From a virus, in the IMG/VR virus record IMGVR_UViG_3300042541_003876, positions 13,742-77,741 of that record: a stretch of DNA of 64,000 bases. One strand, given 5' to 3'. Of the stretch, positions 1-31,600 are shown in pieces; position 1 is the stretch's first letter, and each line of letters begins with the position of its first letter. The position numbers and the translations under genes were made by a program. The notes below the pieces were generated by a model. It had not been told where the DNA came from. It made no database searches and worked only from the letters and a program-made list of their open reading frames with translations.

Positions 1-381
1 GGAAGTAGTATTCCTGATAAAGTAGAATATCTACAAGCCAATGGTTGGCAATGCTATAATCATCACGACAACTGGGTTAAATCTACTTGGTCGGACACGG
101 AAAAAGACGGTTCATTATTAGATTTAAACAAAGCATTTGAGCAATGCGTAAAAGAGCAAATTGTTTTACAAGAAGCAATTAAAACACTATGCAATGCGTT
201 GAAAGAAGATAAAGGGTTATATATCGCTTACCAAGCTAATATTGCTATGGCTTTCCAAGATGAGTTTAATATACAGTCAGAAAAGCACGAAATGTTTACA
301 AAGTGGTTAATGTTGGAAGGTGGATTGTACACAATAGCTAATAATGCAAGTCATAATTTCCTAAAACTTTTAATGCCGTAG
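1..381 (+). CDS. hypothetical protein, 5'-truncated by window edge
   Basis: Frame 1 is open from base 1 (GSSIPDKVEYLQANGW...) to TAG at 379-381. The ORF-track start at 199 is an internal TTG. Confidence 0.75.
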   Translation, partial: GSSIPDKVEYLQANGWQCYNHHDNWVKSTWSDTEKDGSLLDLNKAFEQCVKEQIVLQEAIKTLCNALKEDKGLYIAYQANIAMAFQDEFNIQSEKHEMFTKWLMLEGGLYTIANNASHNFLKLLMP

Positions 382-402
382 GGTGGTAGCAGTTGCGCAG
401 AT

Positions 403-427
403 AACTCGTTTATTTGCGCAACTTTAA
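403..427 (-). repeat. 25-bp element, copy 1 (candidate attI-like recombination site)
   Basis: AACTCGTTTATTTGCGCAACTTTAA is 21/25 identical to 1634-1658. It lies within the hairpin AGTTGCGCAGATAA-ctcgt-TTATTTGCGCAACT (391-423). Confidence 0.5.
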
Positions 428-442
428 TAAAAAAATAAAAAT

Positions 443-1113
<671 letters not shown>

Positions 1114-1282
1114 CCGATACTGTTAAATCTTTCATATTTTCAAATTTTGTTGAAAAGTATTTATGTTTCCCTCATAAATAAGGGAAACAATCTGCAACTT
1201 AATGTATATCAATAACTTTAGTGGTCTTAAAACAGGCTGCAAACATATAGAATTAGAAAGTGCTAACGTCTGTTAAGATTGT

Positions 1283-1380
1283 CACTAACTGTTCTAGGCT
1301 TGGCGTTAGTGCTACCTTGCACGAACTTTGAATTTAGCACTAAACTATCTGGTGGCATTACGCCAAACCCGTGTTATAGG
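1283..1380 (-). other. attC-like integron cassette recombination site
   Basis: CACTAAC (1283-1289) and GTTATAGG (1373-1380) bracket an imperfect inverted repeat, AGGCTTGGCGTTAGTGCTACC (1296-1316) / GGTGGCATTACGCCAAACCC (1351-1370), with an unpaired base. Confidence 0.7.
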
Positions 1381-1422
1381 ATAGTTTTATTTTTGTGGGT
1401 TGGCAATAAATAAATTTCAATT

Positions 1423-1623
1423 ATGAGTAAATGGTTAGACAAAGAGGTTAAACAGCTAATGATGTATGTAGAAGCATCAGATGATAAAACAATGGAAGAG
1501 CTTTATGAATATGTTCACCACATGATGTATAAAGAAGGTAATCATCCAGATTTTCCAGTTAGAACATTGTCGGCTGTAACTGCTAAAATTCGTAAATTTT
1601 GTCGGGAGCTTGGAAAAAAATAA
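1423..1623 (+). CDS. 66-aa hypothetical protein (HTH/Myb-like), probable gene-cassette cargo
   Basis: W-x3-E...RT-x2-AV-x2-K pattern. It is flanked by the complementary ends GTTATAGGATAGTTTTAT and ATAAAATTTCCTACAAC. Confidence 0.7.
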   Translation: MSKWLDKEVKQLMMYVEASDDKTMEELYEYVHHMMYKEGNHPDFPVRTLSAVTAKIRKFCRELGKK

Positions 1624-1633
1624 AATTTCCTAC

Positions 1634-1658
1634 AACTCGTGCATTGGCGCGACTTTAA
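1634..1658 (-). repeat. 25-bp element, copy 2 (candidate attI-like recombination site)
   Basis: AACTCGTGCATTGGCGCGACTTTAA. Similarity to copy 1 ends at about the AAC (GTT on the minus strand). Confidence 0.5.
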
Positions 1659-1719
1659 ATGTAATTAACTGATTATAAGCGCATATAAATTGCGTATTTT
1701 AAATATTAAAAAAAATAAA

Positions 1720-2535
1720 ATGGATACACCACAAGAAAAAATAGAAAAGTACAAATCTAAAATAGCAGAGTACGAAGATAAAATAGCAGAACTAAAAAAA
1801 GAAATATTAGAAATATTAGAAAGATTACATAAAGACAATCGTGATATTCTATTTAATGCTAATTCAAAAAACGAATTTTTTGATTTATTTAAATCGAATT
1901 TTATTATTTTTTGCAGGTATAAAATAATAGATGCCGATTTAATTAAAAAGTATGAATATATTTTTAATTCAGAAAAGATATATTTGAATATTGATATTAG
2001 TGATGGTTTTTTATTCGCTTCTGATAATTCAAAAGTAAACACTCATGGAAATTCAGTAGTATTCGCTTCTGAAAATTCAGTAGTAATCTCTTATGATAAT
2101 TCAGAAGTATTCGCTTATCAAAATTCAAAAGTATTCGCTTATCAAAATTCAAAAGTAAACGCTTATGACAATTCAGAAGTAAACGCTTATGACAATTCAG
2201 AAGTAAACGCTTATGATAATTCAAAAGTAAAAGCTCTTGATAATTCAAAAGTATTCGCTTTTGAAAATTCAACAGTAACCGCTTATGATAATTCAGAAGT
2301 AAACGCTTATGATAATTCAGAAGTAAAAGCTTTTGATAATTCAAAAGTAATCTCTTCTGATAATTCAGAAGTAAACGCTACTGGAAATTCAGAAGTATTC
2401 GCTTATCAAAATTCAAAAGTATTCGCTTATCAAAATTCAAAAGTAAACGCTTATGACAATTCAGAAGTAAACGCTTATGATAATTCAAAAGTAATCTCTT
2501 CTGATAATTCAAAAGTAAATGATTTAAGAAAATAA
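1720..2535 (+). CDS. coiled-coil N-terminus plus octapeptide-repeat (beta-solenoid-like) protein
   Basis: About 21 repeats of A-Y-D-N-S-(E/K)-V-x. ATG at 1720 follows an A-rich tract. Confidence 0.85.
   Translation: MDTPQEKIEKYKSKIAEYEDKIAELKKEILEILERLHKDNRDILFNANSKNEFFDLFKSNFIIFCRYKIIDADLIKKYEYIFNSEKIYLNIDISDGFLFASDNSKVNTHGNSVVFASENSVVISYDNSEVFAYQNSKVFAYQNSKVNAYDNSEVNAYDNSEVNAYDNSKVKALDNSKVFAFENSTVTAYDNSEVNAYDNSEVKAFDNSKVISSDNSEVNATGNSEVFAYQNSKVFAYQNSKVNAYDNSEVNAYDNSKVISSDNSKVNDLRK
2011..2520 (+). repeat. 24-bp coding tandem repeat array
   Basis: Unit is roughly GCTTATGATAATTCAGAAGTAAAC. Positions 2098-2192 recur exactly at 2386-2480 (offset 288 = 12 units). Confidence 0.95.
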
Positions 2536-2537
2536 AA

Positions 2538-2657
2538 ATGATTACAAAAAAAACAGAAATTAAATATTGCCGTAATTACGGTGCTTTAACTCAGATTACA
2601 TTTTATTTTTTAGGGTTAAAATTTTGGACTGAAAATCACTTAAAATATGAAAATTAA
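2538..2657 (+). CDS. 39-aa hypothetical protein
   Basis: MITKKTEIKYCRNYG...TENHLKYEN, packed tightly between neighbouring genes. Confidence 0.45.
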   Translation: MITKKTEIKYCRNYGALTQITFYFLGLKFWTENHLKYEN

Positions 2658-2805
2658 AATGGAAATAATAAATATCGGTGGGATTTGGAATGCAATTATA
2701 AACAATTCTATCCCACAAAGATATAGTGAGCTAAGAGATAAAACAAAATGTGATGATAAATTTAAAATCTTTAATAAAATAAATCCTTTTCAAAATGAGA
2801 AATAA
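2647..2805 (+). CDS. 52-aa hypothetical protein
   Basis: MKIKMEIINIGGIW...PFQNEK, overlapping both neighbours by 11 nt. Confidence 0.45.
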   Translation: MKIKMEIINIGGIWNAIINNSIPQRYSELRDKTKCDDKFKIFNKINPFQNEK

Positions 2806-3091
2806 GCAACACATGACATTTATTGCATTAGAAACATTAGTTGGAAAAACCATTAAATGGAGCGCTCCTTCAGCTAAAGAAAACAGACCGTATTCTGGAA
2901 TTGATAAAATAATATCAATCGATTTAAAAGATCGAACACCTTTAAAAACAGAAGTTATTGAAGGTGATGATTTATCATTTGCTTTTGTAGATGATATGAT
3001 GAAAAATGAATTTTTATCTTATTCAGATAGCTGTCGTGTAGTATCTTTTGAAATCATTGAACCAAGTAATAAAGTAAAATTCATGTCGTAA
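2795..3091 (+). CDS. hypothetical protein (possibly the N-terminal part of a disrupted longer gene)
   Basis: 98-aa ORF. Protein-like sequence continues in the same frame past the stop. Confidence 0.65.
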   Translation: MRNKQHMTFIALETLVGKTIKWSAPSAKENRPYSGIDKIISIDLKDRTPLKTEVIEGDDLSFAFVDDMMKNEFLSYSDSCRVVSFEIIEPSNKVKFMS

Positions 3092-3422
3092 GAATGAGAC
3101 GTCCAAAAAACAAAGTATGCAGTTGATGATTCAATTGCATTAAAACTTACCCATCTAGATGATGGACCGATTGCTACAGATACAGTTTAGCTGGAACAGT
3201 TTCCGATTTCAGAACTGCATAAAAAAGACCATTGCTGGATTAAAACATGGTCTGAAAACGAGGGAATCCTTGAAGCTTTAATCGAAGCTAAGATTATAGA
3301 AAAAGTAAACTTTCCAGCTGTTGATGTTAATGATTGGGGGAAGAATGGCCGTTTTAGTAAAACTAATGAATTCACAAATAACCAATACCGAGTTTATAGA
3401 CTTGGTTGATACAATAGATTAA
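3065..3422 (+). pseudogene. disrupted copy of a common phage/plasmid small protein (DUF4313-like)
   Basis: Reads KVKFMS*E*DVQKTKYAVDDSIALKL...GPIATDTV*L...WIKTWSENEGILEALIEAKII. In-frame stops at 3089, 3095 and 3188, and a probable extra G in the run at 3336-3340. Confidence 0.65.
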
Positions 3423-3424
3423 TT

Positions 3425-3877
3425 ATGATAGCACAAGTTAGAATCACTGTAGGAAAAGATTCTTTAGAGAAAAGAGTCACAGAGTTAAATCTTTTAAAAT
3501 TGTATTTTGAAAGAGATAAAAATAATTTACCTTTCTGTATTGAAATTTTAAATGAATTTGAAGCCGAAGATGATATCGGAGAAATCAATTATTTTCTAAA
3601 AAAAAGATTACCTAAAATGAATCAACACCAAATCGAAAACAATTCAGAAGCTCTTCAGAAAATTGAAGATTTGCAATTAAAAAAGAAGTTTATTCTGGAG
3701 TCAATGGAACGCGTTCACCAAATTAAAATGGAGAATGTAAATGCAAAACTTGATGATGGAAATAGTGCTTTTGTAATTATGGAAATTCCAAAGATGCAGC
3801 TTATTGAAAATCTCCGAATGCAGCTTATTGAAATCGAAAAAGAGATTAAAGAATTGCAGGGAAAAATCATCATCTAA
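3425..3877 (+). CDS. hypothetical coiled-coil protein
   Basis: 150-aa ORF on the coding strand, followed by a terminator. Confidence 0.7.
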   Translation: MIAQVRITVGKDSLEKRVTELNLLKLYFERDKNNLPFCIEILNEFEAEDDIGEINYFLKKRLPKMNQHQIENNSEALQKIEDLQLKKKFILESMERVHQIKMENVNAKLDDGNSAFVIMEIPKMQLIENLRMQLIEIEKEIKELQGKIII

Positions 3878-3895
3878 TATTAACCTACGAAGAAC

Positions 3896-3928
3896 AAAAA
3901 CCGGTACAAACACTTGTGCCGGTTTTTT
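3896..3928 (+). terminator. intrinsic terminator
   Basis: AAAAACCGGTACAA-acac-TTGTGCCGGTTTTTT. Confidence 0.8.
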
Positions 3929-3939
3929 ATTTTATTACT

Positions 3940-4227
3940 ATGGCGAAAATGACATTTGCAATTAGTTGCAAGAAAATCGGTTTATCACATTCTACTTCTT
4001 ACTTTACTTTAGAGAAAGATTTTAATAATGAGGATCATTGTAAAAATTGGATTGCTAAGTATGGAGACACCAATTATAGAAAGGTAATAAGTTACGATAG
4101 AGTTTATTCTATTAAAAAAGAACATTCTGTTGAAGAAATGAGATCAGCTTATGAAGCTGCAGAATCAAAAAAGTTTTCGAAATTTGAGGAATGGTATAAA
4201 TTTAATTTTAAAAAAAATCCTGAATGA
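3940..4227 (+). CDS. hypothetical protein
   Basis: ATG at 3940 (the track start at 3916 lies inside the terminator). ATGA overlap with the helicase gene. Confidence 0.7.
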   Translation: MAKMTFAISCKKIGLSHSTSYFTLEKDFNNEDHCKNWIAKYGDTNYRKVISYDRVYSIKKEHSVEEMRSAYEAAESKKFSKFEEWYKFNFKKNPE

Positions 4228-6842
4228 AAAAAACAAAACAAAGCGTTTCAAGTTTAAAGCAGCTTTCATTTGATGATATGTTTGATAGTTTTTATGAAGA
4301 TGAAATAGTTGAGACAATAATTGATGAAGTTATAATTGAAGGTCCAAAACATTTAGACCTTCCTTTTATTTTAATGGATATTGAAAACATACGAGCAACG
4401 GTTCCTCAACTTCTTCCAGAGCAGCATGATAATGTTTTAATGGCTGAGCTAAGATTTTTTCAACAAAAAGGAAAAGGCATGTTGTTTACTGACTCAACTG
4501 GTTCTGGAAAGACTTTTACAGGATTGGGAATCATTAAAAGATTTTTACTTCAAGAAAAAAAGAATGTTCTTATTGTAGTTCCTACAGATAAAAAATGTAA
4601 AGATTGGATTGATGATGGAGAAATTTTAGATATTCATGTTGAGCAACTTAAAGGAATCAGTGATTGTTATCTAGGAGTAAATGTTACTACCTATGCGAAT
4701 TTTTATCAGAATGATAAAATTATTGAACAGCACTGGGATTTAATTGTTTATGATGAATCACATTATCTCCAGCAGAATGGTCAAGGCGATAAAACTATTT
4801 ATCAAAAGGCTCATGCAATTTTAGCAAAGCTTCCATCTACTATCAAAAGTATTTTGAATAGTGAAGAAAATCGAGAAGCTACTTATAAGATGCCTGAAGA
4901 AAAATTGAAACAGATTATTTCTGATTATGTTCAGTCTACAAAAGTTGTAATGCTTTCAGCAACTCCATTTGCCTATGTAAAATCTATAATGTATGCAGAT
5001 GGTTGTTTATGGGATATTAACGAAACAGAAGAACTTTATTCACCAATACCATCAACTACATATAATTCTCCAAGTAAAGAACAAGCTTTCTTTATTGAGA
5101 ATTTTGGATACAGAATGAGGTACAATAAACTGACAATTCCGGATACAGGTGTTGACTTAAATCTTATGGAAAGACAATTCCATGAAAAGTTTAAAGCACT
5201 TGGTGTAATCTCCGGAAGACAGCTTGACATTGATAAGGATTATTCCCGCGACTTTGTGATTTTAGATTCAACTATTGGCGACAAGATTGATAAAGGAAGA
5301 AAGGTTTTTTATACCGAATATTTTAAAAATAATTATAAAATACTTAATGAGTATTGGAATAAAAAATACAAAGGTCTTTATAATCGCCAATTGCTTGAAG
5401 CAATCAAAGTAAGGTTGGTAATGCCAAGAATTATAAAGCATATTCAGAATGGCCGTAAGGTTGTTTTGTTTCATGATTTTAACACAGCAATTCCTACTCA
5501 CCCATTCCGATTTACTTTGGAAGAATTAATGGGTAAAAATCACCATGATGTTAATGTTTGTAGACGTCTTAAACAAGACATCGATAATTTTCATGAAGAA
5601 TACAGAGATCTGTACAATCTGGATTTATCGGAACTTACCAATGCTTTATCTGAATATTCTACTCATTTTGAAAAGAAAATTGCTTTATTTAATGGAACTG
5701 TTTCCAAATTAAAAAGAAGTAAAGTTTTTATAGAATTTATGACTGACTATTCAGAAATAGATTTATTGGTTGTTCAACGTAAAGCAGGTAAAGAAGGTAT
5801 TTCCGCTCATGACATGACTGGAGTACAAGAACGTGTTTTAATCGATTTAGGACTTCCTACTTCACCAACGGATGCTATTCAATGTGAAGGTAGGATTTAT
5901 CGCTATGGTGTACAATCAAATGCCAGATTTGAGTATCCTGTAATTATGACTAACTTTGAAAGAGAGACTTTTGCTCAAACAATTGCAGAGCGTTCTCGAA
6001 CTGCAGAAAATTTAGCCCTTGGAAACTTAGCCAGAAATATGGAAATTGTTTTTAAAGAAGGTTACTCTGGAGCAGATTATATCGATCCTTTGGAAACCAC
6101 CGGAATCGGCGGTAAAAATACTGATAGATTCATTATGGAAATTTCAGAGTTTGAAAGGTCTAAAACTTATTATTGGGCGAATCAAAAGAAAACTGCTAAA
6201 AATAAAGCAGCTGAAGGTAAAGATTACTACGCAACTCCAGAACCTTTAGGTTTTAAGATGGTTGAGTGGCTGAATTTACTTTCGAACCAAAAAGTTTTAG
6301 AACCATCATGTGGTCACGGTGCAATATCTAGATTCTTTCCTGCGTTTACAAATAATGTAATGATAGAACCAAGCTATGATCTTTCGACAAAAGCAATGAT
6401 TAATTCTACAGGTGATGTTTACAACATTACTTTAGAAGATTATTCTATAGTCAATAGTTTTGATAAAATTGCAATGAATCCTCCATTTGGTAGAGGTGGT
6501 GCTTTGGCCGCCGAACATATTAAAAAATGTTTGAGATATCATTTAAGAAGAATATACGATAAAAGTTCAATGCTAATTGCTATTGTTCCGGACAGTCCGA
6601 TTTATGATAAAAAAATAGCAGAAGTAATGGAGATGATAGAAATTCGACGTTACTTTAAACTGACCAGAGAAATTATTCTTCCATTGTGTACTTTTGAAAG
6701 AGCCGGAACAAATGTAAAATGTAAGATTCAGTTCTTTGAAACATTTGATCCTTACAATGAAAAGCCTTTGCATAATATAGATTTGTCTTATGCAAAAGAT
6801 ATAAAAGAATTCTTTTCTTCAATCGAAAATTTAAATTTCTAA
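4224..6842 (+). CDS. SF2 (Strawberry-notch-like) helicase fused to a C-terminal N6-adenine DNA methyltransferase
   Basis: Helicase motifs TGSGKT, DESH, SATP, AGKEGISAHD and QCEGRIYR. MTase motifs YYATP, VLEPSCGHG and MNPPF. Confidence 0.88.
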   Translation: MKKTKQSVSSLKQLSFDDMFDSFYEDEIVETIIDEVIIEGPKHLDLPFILMDIENIRATVPQLLPEQHDNVLMAELRFFQQKGKGMLFTDSTGSGKTFTGLGIIKRFLLQEKKNVLIVVPTDKKCKDWIDDGEILDIHVEQLKGISDCYLGVNVTTYANFYQNDKIIEQHWDLIVYDESHYLQQNGQGDKTIYQKAHAILAKLPSTIKSILNSEENREATYKMPEEKLKQIISDYVQSTKVVMLSATPFAYVKSIMYADGCLWDINETEELYSPIPSTTYNSPSKEQAFFIENFGYRMRYNKLTIPDTGVDLNLMERQFHEKFKALGVISGRQLDIDKDYSRDFVILDSTIGDKIDKGRKVFYTEYFKNNYKILNEYWNKKYKGLYNRQLLEAIKVRLVMPRIIKHIQNGRKVVLFHDFNTAIPTHPFRFTLEELMGKNHHDVNVCRRLKQDIDNFHEEYRDLYNLDLSELTNALSEYSTHFEKKIALFNGTVSKLKRSKVFIEFMTDYSEIDLLVVQRKAGKEGISAHDMTGVQERVLIDLGLPTSPTDAIQCEGRIYRYGVQSNARFEYPVIMTNFERETFAQTIAERSRTAENLALGNLARNMEIVFKEGYSGADYIDPLETTGIGGKNTDRFIMEISEFERSKTYYWANQKKTAKNKAAEGKDYYATPEPLGFKMVEWLNLLSNQKVLEPSCGHGAISRFFPAFTNNVMIEPSYDLSTKAMINSTGDVYNITLEDYSIVNSFDKIAMNPPFGRGGALAAEHIKKCLRYHLRRIYDKSSMLIAIVPDSPIYDKKIAEVMEMIEIRRYFKLTREIILPLCTFERAGTNVKCKIQFFETFDPYNEKPLHNIDLSYAKDIKEFFSSIENLNF

Positions 6843-13682: not shown

Positions 13683-14912
13683 ATGTCAGAAACTAAAAAC
13701 GCCTTGGAAGTAGAAGTAATCATTCCAAAGGAAGTTCTTGAAAATAACGAAGGACTAAAAAAAATGTACGATGAAAAGAAAAAATCTTTATCATATGTCA
13801 TGGGAGCAGAAACTACAAAACAACTTAAAGATTACATTTCAGATGTAGTAAAAAGTTCTACTTCTGAAGAACTTGCTTTGTTCAATCCAGTATTTAGCGC
13901 TATCAGTTTTATTCAAAATTTCCGTTCCCTTAAATGGAATCCGGAAAAGAAAAATGAAAAAGAATATACTCAAGCAAAAACAATACTGGGTAAATTCAAT
14001 ACTGCAATTAAAACAACTGCGTCAGAAATTAAGAAACCGAGAAATGAATACAATAAAAAAGTTATTCAGCTTGAGAAACTTCTTAATGAAGAAAGCGCAA
14101 ATGTTCGGGCAGCTTTGGATAAAAACTTTGATGAACTGCTTAAAGAAAAGTTAGCAAAAGTAGAAGCTGCTAATGCTAAAAAAGATGCGGTGAAAGACGG
14201 TCAGATTGCGGAACTTTCTGCTGAAAACACAAAGAATACTGAATTACTTACTAATCAGAAAATAACTACAAGAAAATTAGAAATTGATAATATTATTGCA
14301 AAAGTTGTTATCGATGTTACGGGTAAATTAGATTCTTTAAATGAAGAGGGATTAGATAAATTACGAGTAGAAGTTTTGGATAAAAAATTAGGAGACACTG
14401 ATACTCCGGATGTAACTTTTTCAGTCGAAGAAAAAACAAAGTACAGGAAAGATTTTGCAACTCAGGTTTTAGCTGCTATCAAATTAATTGATGATAAAAA
14501 GCAAAACCTTTCTCTTACATCAACTAATGCAAACCTGGAGACTGAAAATAAAGTTTTGAAAGCAAATACACCATCGGCTTTTGTAGACGATGAAGATGAT
14601 ATGCCTTTCGAAATTACTACAGCAACACCAATTACTCCACAGCCAATTGCGCAACCGGTTCTGGTTACAGATGCTGATAAACTTTCATTAGTTGCTCAAC
14701 TGATTGATGAAACTAATACTGCACTTATCAATGCTGTTTCTACTATCAATAATTTAGAATTTGAAGATCCATCACTTCAATCTATTCAAAGAAAATTGGT
14801 AGATGTATCTATGAAAAACATTCTTGACTGGACGGATAAAACAAATATTTGGACGGCCAAAAAGAAAGAAGCATATATTAATCACATTAATTCTTTACAA
14901 AATGAACTTTAA
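13683..14912 (+). CDS. long coiled-coil protein, DUF1351-like
   Basis: LGKFNTAIKTTASEIKKPRNEYNKKV motif, heptad-rich sequence and an internal FVDDEDDMPF. Confidence 0.65.
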   Translation: MSETKNALEVEVIIPKEVLENNEGLKKMYDEKKKSLSYVMGAETTKQLKDYISDVVKSSTSEELALFNPVFSAISFIQNFRSLKWNPEKKNEKEYTQAKTILGKFNTAIKTTASEIKKPRNEYNKKVIQLEKLLNEESANVRAALDKNFDELLKEKLAKVEAANAKKDAVKDGQIAELSAENTKNTELLTNQKITTRKLEIDNIIAKVVIDVTGKLDSLNEEGLDKLRVEVLDKKLGDTDTPDVTFSVEEKTKYRKDFATQVLAAIKLIDDKKQNLSLTSTNANLETENKVLKANTPSAFVDDEDDMPFEITTATPITPQPIAQPVLVTDADKLSLVAQLIDETNTALINAVSTINNLEFEDPSLQSIQRKLVDVSMKNILDWTDKTNIWTAKKKEAYINHINSLQNEL

Positions 14913-22635: not shown

Positions 22636-25600
22636 TTAAAACATATTATTCAAAGCTGCAACCGGTGCCGGAACAAGTTTTCCTGCAAGCCTGTCTGAAT
22701 TCAATATCAAATGACTATCCGAAATTAATTTATCAATAGCAGGATTGTCTGTAAATGTATTTACTGCTGCCAAAGAAGAAACTAATCCCATTGTCACCAA
22801 TGCTGAATTTAATTTTTTTCTTTCATTAGAGTCAAGGTTTTTGTAATAATTTACAAAAGTTTTAGGAGTCCATTCACCACGATATCCTTTCTGAATTGTT
22901 TCAAGCAAAGCAGTATAAGTTCCTATGGTAACATTTCCATAACGGTCAATGTCTTTTTTGCCAAATAAAGTATTGAACATTGTTGGAATGTACCTATTAA
23001 ACTGCATCATTGCTCTTCCCCATGAATACATTTGAATCATTCTTTGATCAGTTGGTTGATAACCTCTGCCATGAACTGCTTTAATTTGATCTTCATAAAG
23101 AGTCAATTTATTTGAATTAATTGGATTTCCATTTTTTAAAGTTTCCCATTCTTCATCTTGAAGTTTACCTAAAAAATGTACACCTTGAATCCATTTCTCA
23201 CTCCATGTCATTGGAAACAAAGCAATATTCATTAGATTTTTTTCTACTGAATTTTTGTTATCCATATTGACATCATCGTAGATATTAATATCCATGAATC
23301 CAGCAGTTTTCAATACCGCCATGGATTCCCGAATTCCCTTAAAAGGATCGGTGATATCAAACTTCCCACTTTTTCCCATCCAAAATCTTTTTTCTCCTTT
23401 TAGCCAATCGGTACCACCAGCTTCTACAACATTGTTGAATTTACCAATCAGCACATTTCCCACTGCATAAACTCCGGCACCCATTGCTAAACCCTTCCAT
23501 CCAAGCCAATAAACTAAACTTCCTTTGGTGATATAATCAACGACTTTATCCGATGTAATTCCCATTGCTTCCAATGCAGGAATATTAGGAATTGAACTTT
23601 GTTTTTGACCGCCAATAAAATATTGTTTCCAAACTTTGTTTACATAATCTGATACATTTTTATCTCCATTAGCATCTGCTTGTGCAAGAATTCCGTCAAT
23701 AACTGGAACCATTTTTTTAAAGCCTTGAAAATTTTCATTTCCATGCTGGAATAATGTAGCATGAGCATAATCAACAAAAGATTTGTTTAAATCCAGCGAA
23801 GGAAAGTCTGCGGACTTCACACTCCTTCCACTTGCAAACCTATCCATAAACACATCACCTAAAGCCCCGCCGATTTCGATAGGGCTTTGGAATATTGGTG
23901 AACCGTCTTGGTTGATTCCTTTTTTATTTAAAACAATTGCTTTTCGTTTTAACTTTATATAATCTAAAGCGTGCCGGTTACTCCGGTTTGGGCCTGCCGA
24001 TAATCCATTGTAGATGTCAGTGATTTCTTTGAATGAAACTCCTTTCATTAACATGGCGTTGACAGGATTTATGATATCCATTTTAACATCGTTGATTTTT
24101 TCATCAACTGTTTTGGCATTTACCATCAATCCAAGCAATCCCCTTCTTGATAATATTTCCCAGTTTGCAGGAGCAACGTGCGGTATATAATCTTTCCTTC
24201 CTGATTTCCCTTCTGGCAAAGCAAATCCTTTTAAAGCATCAGTCGTTGCACGTGAAATATTGTAGAAATTATATTGAGCATCGGAAATACTTCCGGCTTT
24301 ATGTTCTCTCTCTACAACCTCTCTTGGTTTATACCTCATTTCATTGTAAGAATTCCCTTCATTATCTTTTTCAATAATAATCATCAAAGGCCCATAAAGT
24401 TTTTGGTAAATTTCCTGTTTGTTTCCAAACAAATTTGTCTCAACATTTTTGATGTAATTTTTAATATTACCTGAAATTCCTTTACCGCCGTAAGGCTCAT
24501 AACCTAACTGTTCTTTGTATAAAGCATTGGTAGCATCATTAATTTTACCGACAATTTTACTTCTTTCATTCAAAAAGTTTTTATACTCTCCTTCCATTCG
24601 GCGAACTAAGTTTTGTACAGCTGGGTGATTACTGGGAACATTTCCGGTCATGAAATATTTCTGCAAAATAGAAATATCATTTCCGTCATATTCGCGACCC
24701 GTTAACATTGTTTGGTCAGTGGCTGCTCTCGTAGCTAATTCTTTTATGATTGGTGCCACAATTTCAGCATAAGCAAATTTATTCCGGTTTCCAAAACCAA
24801 CTCCATTTCCATATTTATTTCCGATATCATCACGAGAATCATAAAGCTTCAGTAATTCATCATTACTCATTGTTTTTACTGAATCAGTATTAATGATCGA
24901 TTTTAATTTATCGGCTTCCATTTTATTACTGACATATGCCTGATGCATGGAAATTTTACGGTTTTCAGAAAACTCTTTAGAATACTCCATAACCTGATCA
25001 TATTCGTCTTTGTTCATCAGGCGAGCAAAATTCCAGTAATCTCCCCGCATTTCACGTCCATCTGACAGTTTACTCATATCCAATGGTCTTGCAGTAGATT
25101 CATTAAAAATACGGTCATTTATGCCTGTTTCCAGCGTTGCAGGATTTTTAATGGTGATGTAATCCAAATTAGGATTTGCATTGTATTTACCAGCGTAACT
25201 TTTTGAAATCAACCTATGAATTGTCGGCAATAATGTATTGCTGTAATATTCTTTAGTGCTTGAACTTTCTTTATCCAGTTTCAGCTGAGCTCTCGTGTCT
25301 TTATCAATCCCTTGGAATTTTTGAATTAAGTCTTTTCCAGATTTGTCTTTTGTTCGGAAAATAAACGGGTCACCTTTCATAAATGAAGCCATTAAACTTT
25401 CATTGTTTACAGACAATTCGGGATTCAAATTTCTTTCACCATTTCTGCCGTAGGAAAATACATTGTCATAGCTTCTGAATAAATCAGGGTTATTAAAAAT
25501 GGCTTTGTTTTTTAATTGCTGCAACTGAACATCTGTAGCTTTATTTTCTTTTGACATTACAGATACTGTCTGTTTGATCCCACTCTCAAATAATGGAAAC

Positions 25601-28600
25601 AACGAGTTTGGTCCTGACCATCCATTTTTCATCAAATCATAAAGAATCAAATCATTCTTAAGTTCCGACGGAAGCGCCGCAAATTCCTGAATCATTTTGC
25701 TTCTCAAAGTATCATCAGCAGAATTATTGAAAAAATCACTGTTCAAAGAAATATATTTATTGCTTGATTTTAGAGATAAGTTTAAGCCTTGAGTAAGCAA
25801 TAAATTGCTTTCAAAATTGGTAACACTGGCATTAGGGTTTTTGCTGTCATAAAAAGCAAAATCTTTTTTGTACTCAGTAATCTGTTGAGCTAAATTGTTG
25901 AATATGTTTTTTGGTCCAGGAACCTGGCGTTTTGTTGCTGGATCAATTTCATATTTTGTTAAAGCTTCATAAACTTCGCGATCCACATTATTCAATCCTA
26001 AAGCCTGAGCAGTATGGAAAATATCCAAAGCATTATACAAAGCTTTGTGATTATCAGCACTCATTTCTTTTGTAGACAAACTGGTAATTTCATTGTAAAC
26101 TGCTTCGGTATTTCCGGAATAAACAGGATCCAGCTTTTTCTGTGCATCTTGATTTTTAATCAAAACATTTTTGTAATTCTGAACGATAGGACTGTTTTTA
26201 AAATCATCATTGGTAATCAAATGACGGTTATTATCCGGATTCATTCTGTTGTCAAAGTTTTTGATAACGTCATTAATCTCAAATGGATTTACGGTCATTG
26301 TATTGTGAATTGACAGTACAGCACTAATGTCAGAAAGTTCAGTTTCCATTTGATTGATGGTATTAATCAAATTGTACAATTCAATTTCTTGTGACTCAAT
26401 TTTTTTCGTATCGATGTTTATTTCTGAAAATTTACTTCTTTTTAAACCAAATTCAGTACGAAGTTTTTCCATCACATTATACTTCTCATCTTTATTGAAA
26501 GCACTGGTATTATTATTTTTTAACGCTGAATATCTTTTGATCATCGGTGAATTTAGAATAACTGCAACCTGGTCCAAATCAAATCCAAGATTAGTAAGTA
26601 CCATTGCAATAGGAATGGTATTAGTGTCAATTCCCAATTTATTAGCAAAAGCATTTTTGGAATTATCCAGAATAATGTTGAAGTTTTTCGCTGAATTAAT
26701 GGATATTGATTTGTCTGCAGCATCCATAAATTGGTCAGCATAATTACCATCGATATTAATCGGAACTTTAATTCCAATACCGTAATTTCTAAACATTCCT
26801 AAAGTCGTATGAAGATTGGCTGCCAATCCCACATTTGCTTTTGCAATCAAAGTATCTTCGAAAGCTTTTTGTCTACCTCTGGAAGAAAATGGTAACGTAA
26901 AATCAGTTTCGGTTTTTCCCCAAACTTTTTCAGCTGCTTCCACTGCATTTTGCGCATCTTCTTTAAAGTCGATATCCAATCGGATTTCGTCCTGCATCTG
27001 AGGGTTCAGATAATGTTTTTCAATTTTACCCAAAATTCTATTCCAGTCACCGGTCCTGCTTCCTTTGTGCTGAACAAATATCGGATCACCATCATTATCA
27101 GAACCGATGGTTTTTTTAAACTCATTTGGCAATTGGATATTATTTCCTTTTTCTCCGGTAGTCCCTACTACTTCAAAAACTCCTGTAGACTGAATACCAT
27201 GTGAAGGAATACGCGTTGCCAAAACGGTGTCTCCGGCGGCGTAAAATCCTATATGTTGACCACTTGCATTGAATACTTTTCCAACTTCAGTTCCGCGGTT
27301 ATTTGCTTCTGATTTAGCTAATTTCATTTGCTCTTCCAACGATGACTGTTCCGTATAAGTTCCAACAAAATATTTTCTGACTTTCAGTTTATTTCTTTTG
27401 TTGGAATCAGAACCATCTACCATTCCTTCCGGAATAACAACCTCACCTTTTGAAACGGTACCATTGGAATTTGTTTGGTAGAAATTTAAACCAACGTTTC
27501 CGGATTCAGCATTTAAGTCTGAACTTGTTGCATATTCTTTTTCAAATAATGATGGTTTTTCCCGGAGGATTCCCCCGGGGGTTTTTATTTTCAAACCATT
27601 CTGTTTGATGTAATTGGCGATTGTATTTTTTACAATTGATTTTACTGCAGGAGTTTGAAGTGATACATTTTCATTGAATAACAAAAAGTTTTGAGTCTGG
27701 TCAATTAAATTCGGATCAATCAAATCTTTGATAAAAGTTCTGATTTCTGAATCGGTACCACTTATTAATGTTTCCATTCCGACAGTCAGCTGTTGTTCAG
27801 AAAGATTCCTAATGTCATTTAAAATATCATTGACAAAATCTTCATTTTCATTTAAAGCTATATTGCTTGTAAGCGATTTGATGAACTGAACAGAAGTGTT
27901 GGCAAAATCTTTATCAATATCCATTACCTGTTGAATACCAAAGTTAGAACCGTCTGCACCGATAAAGTCATCACCTTCGTAATACATTTTATCCAGCTGA
28001 TTTAATGCTTCCTGAAACTGTTCCGGATTGCTTTCAAAAGCATCGGTAATATTTTGGAAATTCATTAAAGCCGGATTTTCATCGGTAGTTCTATGATTGT
28101 AATAATCAGGAAGATTGTTTGATTTATTTGCCGAAATAGGCACAATCATAGGAATATAGTTTCCGGTACCATCCAACAAATTCATTGAAGGTTTACCATA
28201 TTTAGATTCGTATTTTGCTTTTCTTGCTTTCAACAATTCATAAGCGCCTTTTAAAGCAGGGTTTTTAATGACAACCTCATCATTAAGAACGGTAGCAAAT
28301 CCTTTGTTGTAAATATTCTGGCCAAGCATTCCCGGAGCATTTCTCTCAATACCGGTATGAATCAGTTTGAATGAATTACCTAAAAGCATCATGTTACCAC
28401 CAGCTGATCTAAATCTTTCTGCGTCATCTTCCAAAATATAAAATCCGGAATCGGTTGCTTCAAAATCATCCAATTCATTGATTTTAATATCTTCCAAATA
28501 AATCGGTTCCACGCGGGTATTTGGAAAAGTAAACATCGGCGATGATGCAGATTTTGCTCTTTTCACCAACTCATTGTCTCCATTTGCTTTTTTCATCTGG

Positions 28601-31600
28601 AACGACGGAAAGAAAATCTCAGTAAAATTGGTACCATTGATAATTTGATTCATTTCAAATTCTGCAATTTTCATTTGGCCGTCACGGTTTAATTTACCTG
28701 TAGCTGGATCAGTAATTTTTTGGAATTTCTTATCATATTTAAATGAAGTTAAATTGTCGTTAACAAAATTAATTTGATCTTTTACAGAATCCAACAGCAA
28801 GCCTTTAAATTCATCAAAAGTTCCGTTGTAACCCAAAGCCTTGTGAGTATTATAAATATTGTCTAAAAACGCTCTGTTGGTAAAATCAATGCCGTCTTTC
28901 CCGATTTTCATAATATCAGCAATATCTGTTTTAGGCATTTCGGTATAGAATGCTCGTGTACTGTCTGAGAATCTTCCCAAGTCCATCAAATAAGTTCCTG
29001 CTTTGTCAGTATTCAAAAAAGTAACAAATTGGCTTAATCTTTCAGTAACAGGATCACTTGTTTTTAAAGTGGTTCGTTTATCATTGTTATAAGCATTTTG
29101 AATTCCACCGTATTCCAATAAATCGATATCTCCACCATTGGAAATTCTATCATAAATAAATCCTGCAAATTTGTTGGATAATGCTCCTTTTCCTTCAGTA
29201 TTTTTCAAAGAATGTTTAGCGATAAACTCATTTTTTGAATTTCTTAAAACATCTTCTTTTAAATATTTAAAATTACGTGAGAGGTAATTATCGACAATTC
29301 TTGCTTGGTGCATATTGTTGTCTGCATGCATTACGGTATAATCAGCGCGGTACTTACGGTTTTCATTGATAAGACCCTGTACTACCATTCTGATTCCCGG
29401 CTTCATAATAGAAGCGTTATTTGAATCTAATTTATAAACTCCAGAAGTGAATTTATTACCAACTTTTTTAATGAACTGTTTGGTCTTGGTATTACGAGCT
29501 CCTTCTACATTTCTAATTTCACCAATAAAACCATTTCCACTTTGATCTGTAGCTAGAGAAACAATAATTTGGTCAAGCGGATAAGCTTTACCATTAATAT
29601 TAATTCTGTTTGCTGCAATCAAAGATTTTGAGTCAATACCAAATTCATTACGAACTAAAAATCTAGTAATAACATTAATGTCATTACGTGTGTAATCGTT
29701 GTTTTGAATATTATTCAAAGATTGATTTAGAGTAATATATTCTTCCTGTAAATCAGAATTGTTTTTACGGTTGTTTCCAAAGAAAGGCTCTTTGATACTT
29801 TCCATAATATTTTCATATTGAGTCTTTTCTTTGTTGCTTAAATTTAATTCTACTTGGGATTCTCCGGAAGGATTTACATAATTTTTAAATGAAGAAATAT
29901 TACTGGTGTTATTCTCGTGCCAGTAAAACATTTGCATTACCATATTTTTGTCACCACGGTTTATTTTATCTAAATGTTTTAAAAATTCCTCAACTTCATA
30001 ATACGGTGATTCTTCCATTCTTCGGATAAAATCAGAACCGGACCACGCAACTTTTGCCAATCCACTCATTTGATAACGAAGCTGGTCAGCTTTCACATAA
30101 GGAATGTTTTTCCAGTTGGCTTTTTTTCCATTGATACTATTGATATAGGAAATTCCTTTATTCATTTTCCGAGTAAATGCTGTAATCAATGGTGTAATTT
30201 TGTTTACATACGAAAACCGGTTATCATCATCAAAAAAATTATTGAAATCAATATCATCAATTAAGTTTTCTAAATCTCCGGAAGCTAATCTTTGCGGTAA
30301 AGTTTCATTATTGATAAAAGCTTGGCGCTCTGCTTCAATGGAATTTTCAATTGCTTGTAGACGATTTGAAATCTGGTCATTGTTTTCCATTTCTAAAGAT
30401 GCGCGACCATCTGCAGAAATAAGTTTGCCGCTAATTTCATTTTGAAACTGATCTAAAATAGAATTTAAATTATCAGAATATTCAATTTGATCATCCTCAC
30501 TTAAAGTTTTGAAAAACACTTCTCTTTCAGATTTATTACCAAGGTTTTTTCCTTGCTCTTTGATTTTTCCCCACCATTTTTTTGCAAGAAATTTTCGGCG
30601 AGGTTCATCTTCAATTGAAGGATTACTGTCTTTGAAATATTTGTTATACTTGTCAGATAATGGACCTTGTAATGTTGCCGCGAAAACTTCATCAGCGATT
30701 ACCTCCTGTTCTATCAAAGGAATATTTGTAATGAATCCTTTTTTGATTAATTCTTCAATTTTAGAATCTCTTTCTTCCTGGGATAAGTCTCCAAAATTTT
30801 GGAACAATTGTTCCCGAAAAAGAATTTCACCATCTTTTTTACGGTACTGAATTTTATCTTCGTAACGATCAAGAATATTATTAACCAAAGTTTTGTTTCT
30901 AAAACCATTTCTCAGCATTCTTTGAGTTTCCTCGGTATCTTTAGTCAAAGCATAGTAAATGTGCGAAGCTTCATGCATGAAAACATCATTCTGGTACCAC
31001 TTTGATTCGTCAATATAGATTTGTCCGGCCAAGGCAAAGCCCATAGCTTTTACGCCTACAGTTTCCTGCATGTTGCGAACAGAATAAACATTAATGTTCA
31101 TATCTGGAAATACTCTTTTCATTGCATTGGAAACTCCAATCGATTGTGATAAGAATTCAAAATCAGCGGTACCGAAATCACTTTCAAAAAAATTAACTGC
31201 TTTTCCTTTTTTGTTTCGAAGATTGTTTAAACCATTGGAAACAATATCCAAAGCTGAACTGACAATCTTTTCTTTATTGAAAAATTTATTTTCTTCCTGT
31301 CTTGCATCACGACGATCATTGAACATATCAGGATTTGCAGGTTTAACAGTAATTTTTTCTTCTGAATTTTCTTCAGCTGCTGGTGATGCTTCATTAATGG
31401 ATTTTTTACCACTAATGTTTTTCATCATTTCTTTAACCTCAATTTTTTCTTCGTCGGATAAAGTTTCATCGTTATCCACAAATTTTGAAGGGTTATCCAC
31501 GATTTCATCAACTTCGGTTTTGAAAGCTTCATAAACCTCAGCTTGTTTTTTAGTCAATTCCTTACCATCCAGAATTTGTAACGCCAAAGCATCTACAGCA

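Follow-up and report, generated by a model that had tools for sequence, protein, structure and literature searches.

A candidate integron-like gene cassette with a hairpin spacer and gene-flanking complementary arms in a freshwater crAss-related phage

The DNA analyzed here (the window) is a stretch of 64,000 nt, covering positions 13742-77741 of an IMG/VR virus record that is 77.7 kb long, that CheckV rates as 98% complete and that encodes a portal, a terminase, and a 3963-aa open reading frame (ORF). Between an exonuclease gene and the gene for a 271-aa repeat protein lie 309 nt of noncoding DNA and a 66-aa ORF, which together are the subject of this study (Table 1). The named relatives of the terminase (TerL) were crAss-like phages only, at 23-26% identity; by this similarity TerL is distantly crAss-like, in agreement with the initial annotation, which had called the phage crAss-like. 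DNA of the phage was present in lake and freshwater metagenomes (24 DNA runs), and a megablast search of window positions 1-4200 against the phage collection returned no match. The 3963-aa ORF had no match in PDB, Pfam, or PHROG, and its GSDNDGDPIF segment recalls the metal-binding motif of the two-barrel RNA polymerases packaged by crAss-like phages. The neighboring 271-aa ORF consists mostly of about 20 tandem 7-residue units (NSEVNAY/DNSKVFAY, 21-nt period) and weakly matches phrog_15773, a PHROG without assigned function. A 12-bp hairpin, TGTTTCCCTCAT / ATAAGGGAAACA (window 1164-1189), situated 50 nt past the exonuclease stop codon, is possibly the terminator of that gene; a sub-threshold Rfam match to "Bacteroides-1" (E = 5.3) overlaps it. 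The lack of a tyrosine recombinase, initially reported for the window, holds for the whole 77.7-kb record, in which no tyrosine recombinase (PF00589), Y1 transposase (PF01797), or serine recombinase was found. An IS200/IS605-type (Y1 HUH) element was rejected, given the missing PF01797 match and a hairpin at one end only, as was a serine-invertase reading, given that the record has no serine recombinase.

The two arms around the 66-aa ORF pair in antiparallel orientation through 19 Watson-Crick pairs, a single G.T pair (1384.1626), one A.C mismatch (1376.1633, a position at which relatives carry T), and one bulged T (1382), which bears out the earlier description of this gene as flanked by complementary ends of about 22 nt. 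The 98-nt upstream element with a GC-rich imperfect stem, also described initially, is present as well. The right arm overlaps the 3' end of the ORF, from its penultimate sense codon through the stop codon, and the hairpin spacer, referred to here as H, is a single-copy element in the genome of this phage. No Pfam or PHROG family matched the 66-aa protein; its AlphaFold model consists of three helices and is weak (pLDDT 64.6), too weak for a fold search.

Several smaller motifs accompany this architecture. G-rich boxes are located at the inner ends of the arms, GTGGG(T/C) after the left arm (window 1395-1404) and GTGCGGTGGG before the right arm (1604-1615); the same boxes occupy equivalent places in L084-L191, where the pair amounts to a direct repeat on either side of the swapped ORF, with the replacement falling between the boxes. 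The 3' G-rich box resembles Chi-type G-rich motifs. A AAACTTAATTAAAA-like box found 10-25 nt before start codons in the spacer loops of L085, L131, L164, and L050 is a candidate phage promoter or leader, and the same box occurs in the H hairpin (window 1325-1336) as AACTTTGAATTT or AAACTTAAATTTT. Reading the hairpin as a host sigma-A promoter (TTG-N19-GAACTTTG) fits one H variant, H1; the TTTG is not kept in the other, H2.

Table 1. Features of the 66-aa gene cassette and its surroundings, in window coordinates
Feature	Position	Strand	Remarks
Right arm GCAGATAAC of neighboring bracketed gene	397-405	+	genome 13629-13637 pairs with 14138-14146
Canonical copy of repeated leader motif	403-442	+	follows the right arm of the neighboring gene
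RNase T/Rv2179c-like exonuclease gene	562-1113		upstream neighbor of the cassette
Left border CACTAAC	1283-1289	+	similarity with all related cassettes starts at (T)AAC
Hairpin spacer, H element, 83 nt	1290-1372	+	44 non-identical copies found
H stem, GC-rich, imperfect	1297-1316 with 1351-1369	+	within hairpin span 1297-1369
H loop	1317-1350	+	contains the AACTTTGAATTT box
Left arm, GTTATAGGATAGTTTTATTTTT = GTTATAGGATAG + T-run	1373-1394	+	pairs with 1616-1636
End of 98-nt upstream element, GTTATAGG	1373-1380	+	element spans 1283-1380
A/T-rich leader GTGGGTTGGC...AAATTT, up to ATG	1395-1422	+	kept before unrelated ORFs
Cargo gene, 66 aa	1423-1623	+	KWTxEE N-terminus, three predicted helices
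Right arm AAAAATAAAATTTCCTACAAC, ending in right border CAAC	1616-1636	+	similarity to L091 stops exactly at 1636
Next spacer, degenerate fourth copy of leader motif (AAC, then TCGTGCATT(T/G)GCG...ACTTTAA)	1637-1719	+	precedes the 271-aa gene
271-aa repeat protein gene	1720-2535		downstream neighbor of the cassette
3963-aa ORF	22636-34527	-	GSDNDGDPIF at residue 2477 (DNDGD motif)

Judged from the window alone, the arms and the hairpin are not beyond chance, and the case for them is weak. Folding of the 98-nt element as single-stranded DNA gave unremarkable scores (z = -0.9 for the plus strand and z = -1.6 for the minus strand), one half of either arm is a run of A/T that finds other complements nearby, and the genome was no richer in nine-base inverted repeats than its shuffles. 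An Rfam cmscan of window positions 1-6000 (E ≤ 10) placed no family over 1283-1640, and no tRNA or tmRNA was detected within the window. The fold scores, the local frequency of A/T-run complements, and the genome-wide level of inverted repeats would all suit a chance match of inverted ends in A/T-rich DNA beside an unrelated hairpin. The non-randomness of the feature is nevertheless established by comparison with other contigs, more than 40 of which have the identical architecture, arms and hairpin stem alike showing compensatory changes; this comparison already refutes the chance reading, whose probability we regard as practically nil.

The viral contigs in question were retrieved with a hairpin-core pattern (13 contigs) and with a looser pattern (about 30 more). 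The hairpin, the left arm, and the leader of ~28 nt were near-identical across them, and the ORF after the leader differed. Sequence 5' of TAAC was different in every contig, with conservation starting from TAAC, and each following ORF terminated in its matching right arm. The 36 complete cassettes in other viral contigs that have the 83-nt hairpin and both arms carry 25 unrelated ORF families, which include an MT-A70 methyltransferase and a metallophosphoesterase and for the most part have no recognizable function. Cassette behavior, as initially proposed, is thereby borne out twice over, by one hairpin and arm pair flanking 25 unrelated ORF families and by one cassette recurring between unrelated flanks.

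Covariation sorts the arms into at least four types, with A-T, C-G, or G-C at stem position 6 and inner segments that change together as TTTTATTTT/AAAATAAAA, TTCATTTTT/AAAAATGAA, TTTTAAAAACC/GGTTTTTAAAA, and TTCAATTTT/AAAATTGAA, with the bulged T and the G.T pair kept in every type. RNAalifold on the H copies returned a stem of 17 bp in which 3 pairs covary and one G.U is invariant; the compensatory changes comprise AU<->UA in 15 sequences and GC<->AU in 18, and the differences between the two main H variants are themselves compensatory. H is combined with other arms in L086, showing that hairpin and arms sometimes assort independently. In L153 and L164 the left arm and the leader are intact, and the hairpin cannot form because only the 3' half of H is left, fused to the upstream coding region.

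Comparison of related phages had been set beforehand as one test of the cassette proposal, and on two of the three points named then as grounds for refutation the outcome favors the proposal: the borders are precise at AAC, and homologous sites surround different genes. The 66-aa gene has an 85%-identical copy in an unrelated context in L003/L091; the cassette as such recurs in L091 at 87% identity, where both of its neighbors are unrelated genes, and the alignment of the window with L091 stops exactly at the right border. Eight cassette families, including that of the window, were 86-99% identical between contigs inside the AAC borders, and their 40-nt flanks were at background (48-62% identity, with one pair at 70%). 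Break points of homology fell within 10 nt of bracket ends in 181 cases versus about 23 expected (L122 left out; see below). By this alignment evidence, cassettes have been exchanged with exact borders. No viral contig showed an "empty" site, that is, a left arm with a right arm directly behind it, both inside 31 nt. Four of the lake or freshwater DNA runs yielded fragmentary contigs with two poorly supported joints, both away from the borders, and none was informative at 1290/1636.

The cassette belongs to a much wider set of gene brackets of the form GTTA-N6...N6-TAAC. Such brackets numbered 235 in all fetched loci versus 27 in shuffles, and 194 of the 235 (83%) had a G.T at stem position 11 with the G always in the 5' arm on the sense strand, both counts including 21 pairs from L122. 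The "brackets" of L122 are cross-pairs of an unrelated GTTAGCSG repeat, and this locus was left out of the later strand and break-point analyses; its region 2879-4859 contains dense GTTAGC(C/G)G... / ...C(G/C)GCTAAC repeats that pair with each other in many combinations and form a separate family sharing the GTTA/TAAC ends. Of 188 brackets, 173 had a G.T pair whose orientation matched the coding strand. An open frame fills a median of 92% of the bracket unit, and the units form arrays with spacers of ~80-120 nt. In most cassettes the two arms have a sequence particular to that cassette and match one another, in agreement with the initial remark that the two ends of one gene match each other and not those of the neighbor.

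The spacers are structured as well: 109 distinct spacers contain their own stem of ~20 bp, which starts 5-6 nt after TAAC and ends 1-2 nt before GTTA. With L122 left out, the mismatches in these spacer stems were G.T in 145 instances and T.G in 6, mainly at stem positions 11 and 14. Common to the spacer loops are a conserved box, AACTT..AATTAAAA, and a leader rich in A. Many units have their start codon inside the spacer and an ORF that runs across the GTTA border, and free shuffling at this border is consequently constrained.

Three brackets were found in the genome of this phage (genome coordinates 12368/13044, 13629/14146, and 15114/15377), along with leader-motif copies at genome positions 13042, 13473, 14144, and 15375, the last of which corresponds to window 1634 with the motif extending to 1660. 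The leader motif consists of AAC, then TCGTGCATTTGCGCAACTTTAAT, an A-run, and ATG, and genome positions 13042 and 13473 equal positions 1509 and 1940 of L002. Three of the four copies are near-identical and run directly into a start codon, and MNKIKNF opens two of the ORFs behind them. The stretch is common to many unrelated lake contigs, as seen from a depth peak and loose ends in the run contigs.

In related phages, the arrays are linked to a recombinase. A PF00589 gene was present in 2 of 5 array-bearing records, where it follows the last TAAC immediately and in the same orientation; the encoded proteins share 72% identity. A search with these two proteins yielded 39 loci with full-length Xer-like relatives (66-100% identical), which are not independent associations, the count being partly inflated because the loci come from related phages and their gene order may be inherited. 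At these loci, 146 sense-oriented brackets were located upstream of the recombinase and 1 downstream (203 kb versus 271 kb), and an array was present in 32 of the 33 loci that had at least 1 kb of upstream sequence. The last TAAC often lies 16-58 nt before the recombinase match, and at about 16-60 nt before it a conserved junction, N6-TAAC followed by TAT(N)ATATATA (TAAC, then TATNATATATA), separates the last cassette from the recombinase gene in L201-L240. This junction is a candidate primary (attI-like) site; the TATNATATATA site is absent from the genome of the phage studied here. Among phages with 72-95% similar recombinase genes, DNA similarity starts at the last TAAC and the upstream arrays share nothing. 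The cassette type of the window occurs inside such recombinase-linked arrays.

The recombinase measures 276-286 aa, and its best profiles are XerA, the integron integrase, XerC, and XerD, all of them below every curated cut-off. On the integron-integrase model TIGR02249, whose cut-off is 265, it reached 145-158 bits, and on NF011946, whose cut-off is 435, it reached 94-107 bits; it matched each in two stretches, and by sequence it is closest to a XerC-like structure. No close bacterial homologue emerged from the recombinase search of genome contigs. One contig labeled as a Saccharibacteria MAG, possibly a phage contig, carries brackets and a truncated recombinase match. No bracket array occurs in the nearest cultured phages, which have a 38%-identical integrase and include Cellulophaga phage Ingeline.

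Taken together, these data lead us to favor, by a modest margin over doubt, the view that positions 1290-1636 constitute one self-contained mobile cassette from an integron-like system by which freshwater crAss-related phages capture genes, present here without its enzyme. The cassette comprises, in order, the 83-nt hairpin spacer, a left arm starting with GTTA, the cargo gene, and a right arm ending with TAAC, and the AACTT..AAT box in the H loop may serve as the cassette's promoter or leader. Where cassette ends are joined, the right arm, the hairpin, and the left arm could form one imperfect hairpin of ~126 nt, in which the arms would supply a lower stem with the bulged T and the G.T pair, followed by an asymmetric internal loop and then the upper stem. 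A fold computed with DNA parameters gave a single long hairpin for each strand of the joined site (-17.7 and -20.6 kcal/mol), and the better-folding strand is the counterpart of the integron "bottom" strand. We infer that the site folds as a single strand in vivo and that the Xer-type tyrosine recombinase recognizes it in this form and exchanges strands at the GTTA/TAAC junction, upon which cassettes would be excised, inserted, and shuffled. Read on the strand antisense to the genes, the layout is recombinase, adjacent (candidate primary) site, and then (gene + hairpin)n, which is the integron plan. Because the record of this phage contains no recombinase, its cassettes would be either moved in trans (e.g., during co-infection) or relics; the action in trans proposed initially is plausible because a dedicated tyrosine recombinase ends such arrays in related phages. 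Several of the observations above weigh against the cassette view, namely the missing recombinase and TATNATATATA site in this record, ORFs that run across the GTTA border, the occasional independent assortment of hairpin and arms, the A.C mismatch in the arms studied here, and the nearest cultured phages lacking arrays.

Part of this evidence could be accommodated if the helices acted in RNA, with early transcripts folding into stems for RNase III-type processing, mRNA-end protection, or cistron insulation, and if ordinary recombination at the conserved spacers produced the cassette-like shuffling incidentally. On the sense strand, the position that departs from Watson-Crick pairing is invariably G.U, and it tracks the coding direction in the aforementioned 173 of 188 brackets, and a conserved, oriented G.T coupled to coding direction fits an mRNA structure equally well. 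Stems of 15-26 bp are of a size typical for substrates of double-strand RNases, the stop codon is located at the inner end of the right arm, and the stems are present in this phage without any recombinase. The crAss-like phage phi14:2 is also reported to produce abundant noncoding early intergenic RNAs (bioRxiv 10.1101/2020.03.07.982082), which counts for a role in RNA. However, the invariant GTTA/TAAC ends and the exact cassette borders in unrelated contexts would be left unexplained, as would the tight junction of array and recombinase with its conserved adjacent site. The strict G(5').T(3') bias (145 versus 6) exceeds simple wobble tolerance, and the 5' arm of the spacer stem would be missing from its own gene's transcript if the spacer-loop box acts as the promoter. 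We consider this combination of RNA function and incidental shuffling unlikely, albeit deserving of attention; the helices may also serve in mRNA in addition to a role in DNA.

A different possibility is that the conserved parts form a regulatory promoter/leader and terminator module common to many early genes and resembling the PeSLs (promoter-early stem-loops) of T4-type phages, with homologous recombination between shared flanks swapping the ORFs and no site-specific enzyme involved. PeSLs are documented mediators of modular shuffling (PMC2839356, PMC4122927), and contigs with nothing else in common agree at 88-99% over hairpin and leader (~135 nt), with the ORF swapped between this conserved leader and a conserved 3' box consisting of GTGCGGTGGG and the arm; another leader motif, moreover, has four copies in this genome. 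Shared flanks do not account for the gene-specific, mutually matching arms of most cassettes, nor for the arm covariation, the stereotyped position of the G.T pair, and the polarity of the arrays toward the recombinase. We regard such a module as a distinctly improbable explanation of the whole. Homologous recombination between conserved spacers may still contribute, as it does with PeSLs.

Returning to the integron-like reading, a more specific version appears to us tentative, with its prospects somewhat below even: an undescribed phage gene-capture system in which a Xer-type (non-IntI) recombinase would act on self-expressing single-gene cassettes through a site of ~126 nt that is split around the gene on insertion, serving early accessory genes (host takeover or anti-defense), with cassettes that persist and can be moved in trans without the enzyme. 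The large GTTA/TAAC-bordered cassette family of freshwater crAss-related phages is apparently undescribed, and our literature search turned up no description of Xer-linked arrays or of sites built in this way. Early regions of phages contain many small genes with fast turnover, often for counter-defense, and their exchange is largely attributed to illegitimate or homologous recombination. If the proposal is true, a site-specific cassette system in virulent-type phages would provide a mechanism for this early-gene turnover, crAss-related freshwater phages would own an integron for early accessory genes, and the integron principle would extend to another enzyme branch and site design. The pattern GTTA-N6...G / T...N6-TAAC would then also be an easy metagenome signature for mobile accessory genes of phages.

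Among known systems, Xer sites are short duplexes of ~28 bp. Elements that exploit Xer/dif resemble the arrays described here in that the associated enzyme is nearest to XerA/XerC/XerD by profile, and differ in using short duplex sites, in contrast to the putative folded hairpins of ~126 nt repeated between genes in the phage arrays. Integrons include sedentary chromosomal ones with near-identical attC repeats of ~123-126 nt, and the likeness to them is broad. Both systems consist of single-gene units with a site type common to many unrelated ORFs; both have an imperfect folded site with conserved AAC/GTT ends, a variable interior, and mutually complementary cassette ends; in both, the arrays (here, those of related phages) abut a tyrosine recombinase of the Xer/IntI branch with a distinct adjacent site; and in both, a fixed irregularity marks one strand, the G.T pair being analogous but not identical to the extrahelical bases of attC. 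The differences are equally concrete. The phage recombinase, at 276-286 aa, is below the integron-integrase cut-off, and the present record has no IntI; the enzyme reads in the same direction as the genes and closes the array at its 3' end, and the genes point toward it, whereas integron ORFs run away from attI; and the phage cassettes seem to bring along a leader or promoter of their own. Whereas the attC hairpin is contiguous and 3' of its ORF, the phage hairpin is positioned 5' of the ORF with which it travels, and for this reason the genes are antisense in the integron convention. Unlike in attC, the phage stem extends 15-26 bp beyond the border and is therefore split around the gene. The attC cores are GTTRRRY/RYYYAAC and the phage cores GTTA/TAAC, with CTACAAC and GTTATAG of the window misfitting the R/Y pattern, and the two extrahelical bases of attC contrast with a G.T mismatch, plus a bulged T in the cassette type of the window. 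Of the IntI/attC signature recognized initially, AAC and GTT are invariant, homology borders fall on them, and a crossover would lie within the invariant TAAC; the enzyme is Xer-like and below the IntI cut-off, the cores do not follow the attC pattern beyond AAC/GTT, and the position of the hairpin and the split stem differ from the attC layout. The integron-like reading as a whole is partly supported, with recombination being what we infer from the comparisons.

The PeSL cassettes of T4-type phages, in which regulatory motifs flank small early accessory genes in hyperplastic regions (PMC2839356, PMC4122927), share with the present family the conserved motifs that flank accessory genes and mark the break points of shuffling. 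They are direct repeats that act through homologous recombination, whereas the ends described here are gene-specific inverted repeats with fixed GTTA/TAAC and belong to recombinase-linked arrays. Nearest in print are the CALINs, clusters of attC sites without an integrase, reported in virulent and temperate phages (Qi et al. 2023, PMC9892861). These were canonical attC sites identified by IntegronFinder/HattCI in phages of other hosts, and the paper, which also covers canonical integrons in phages, makes no mention of an enzyme of the Xer type, of Bacteroidota-type phages, or of split stems. With at least two cassette sites (three brackets) and no recombinase, the array of the present phage would count as a CALIN only if its sites were accepted as attC-like. 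The two nonetheless have in common cassette-type sites without an integrase in phage genomes and a cargo of the methyltransferase type.
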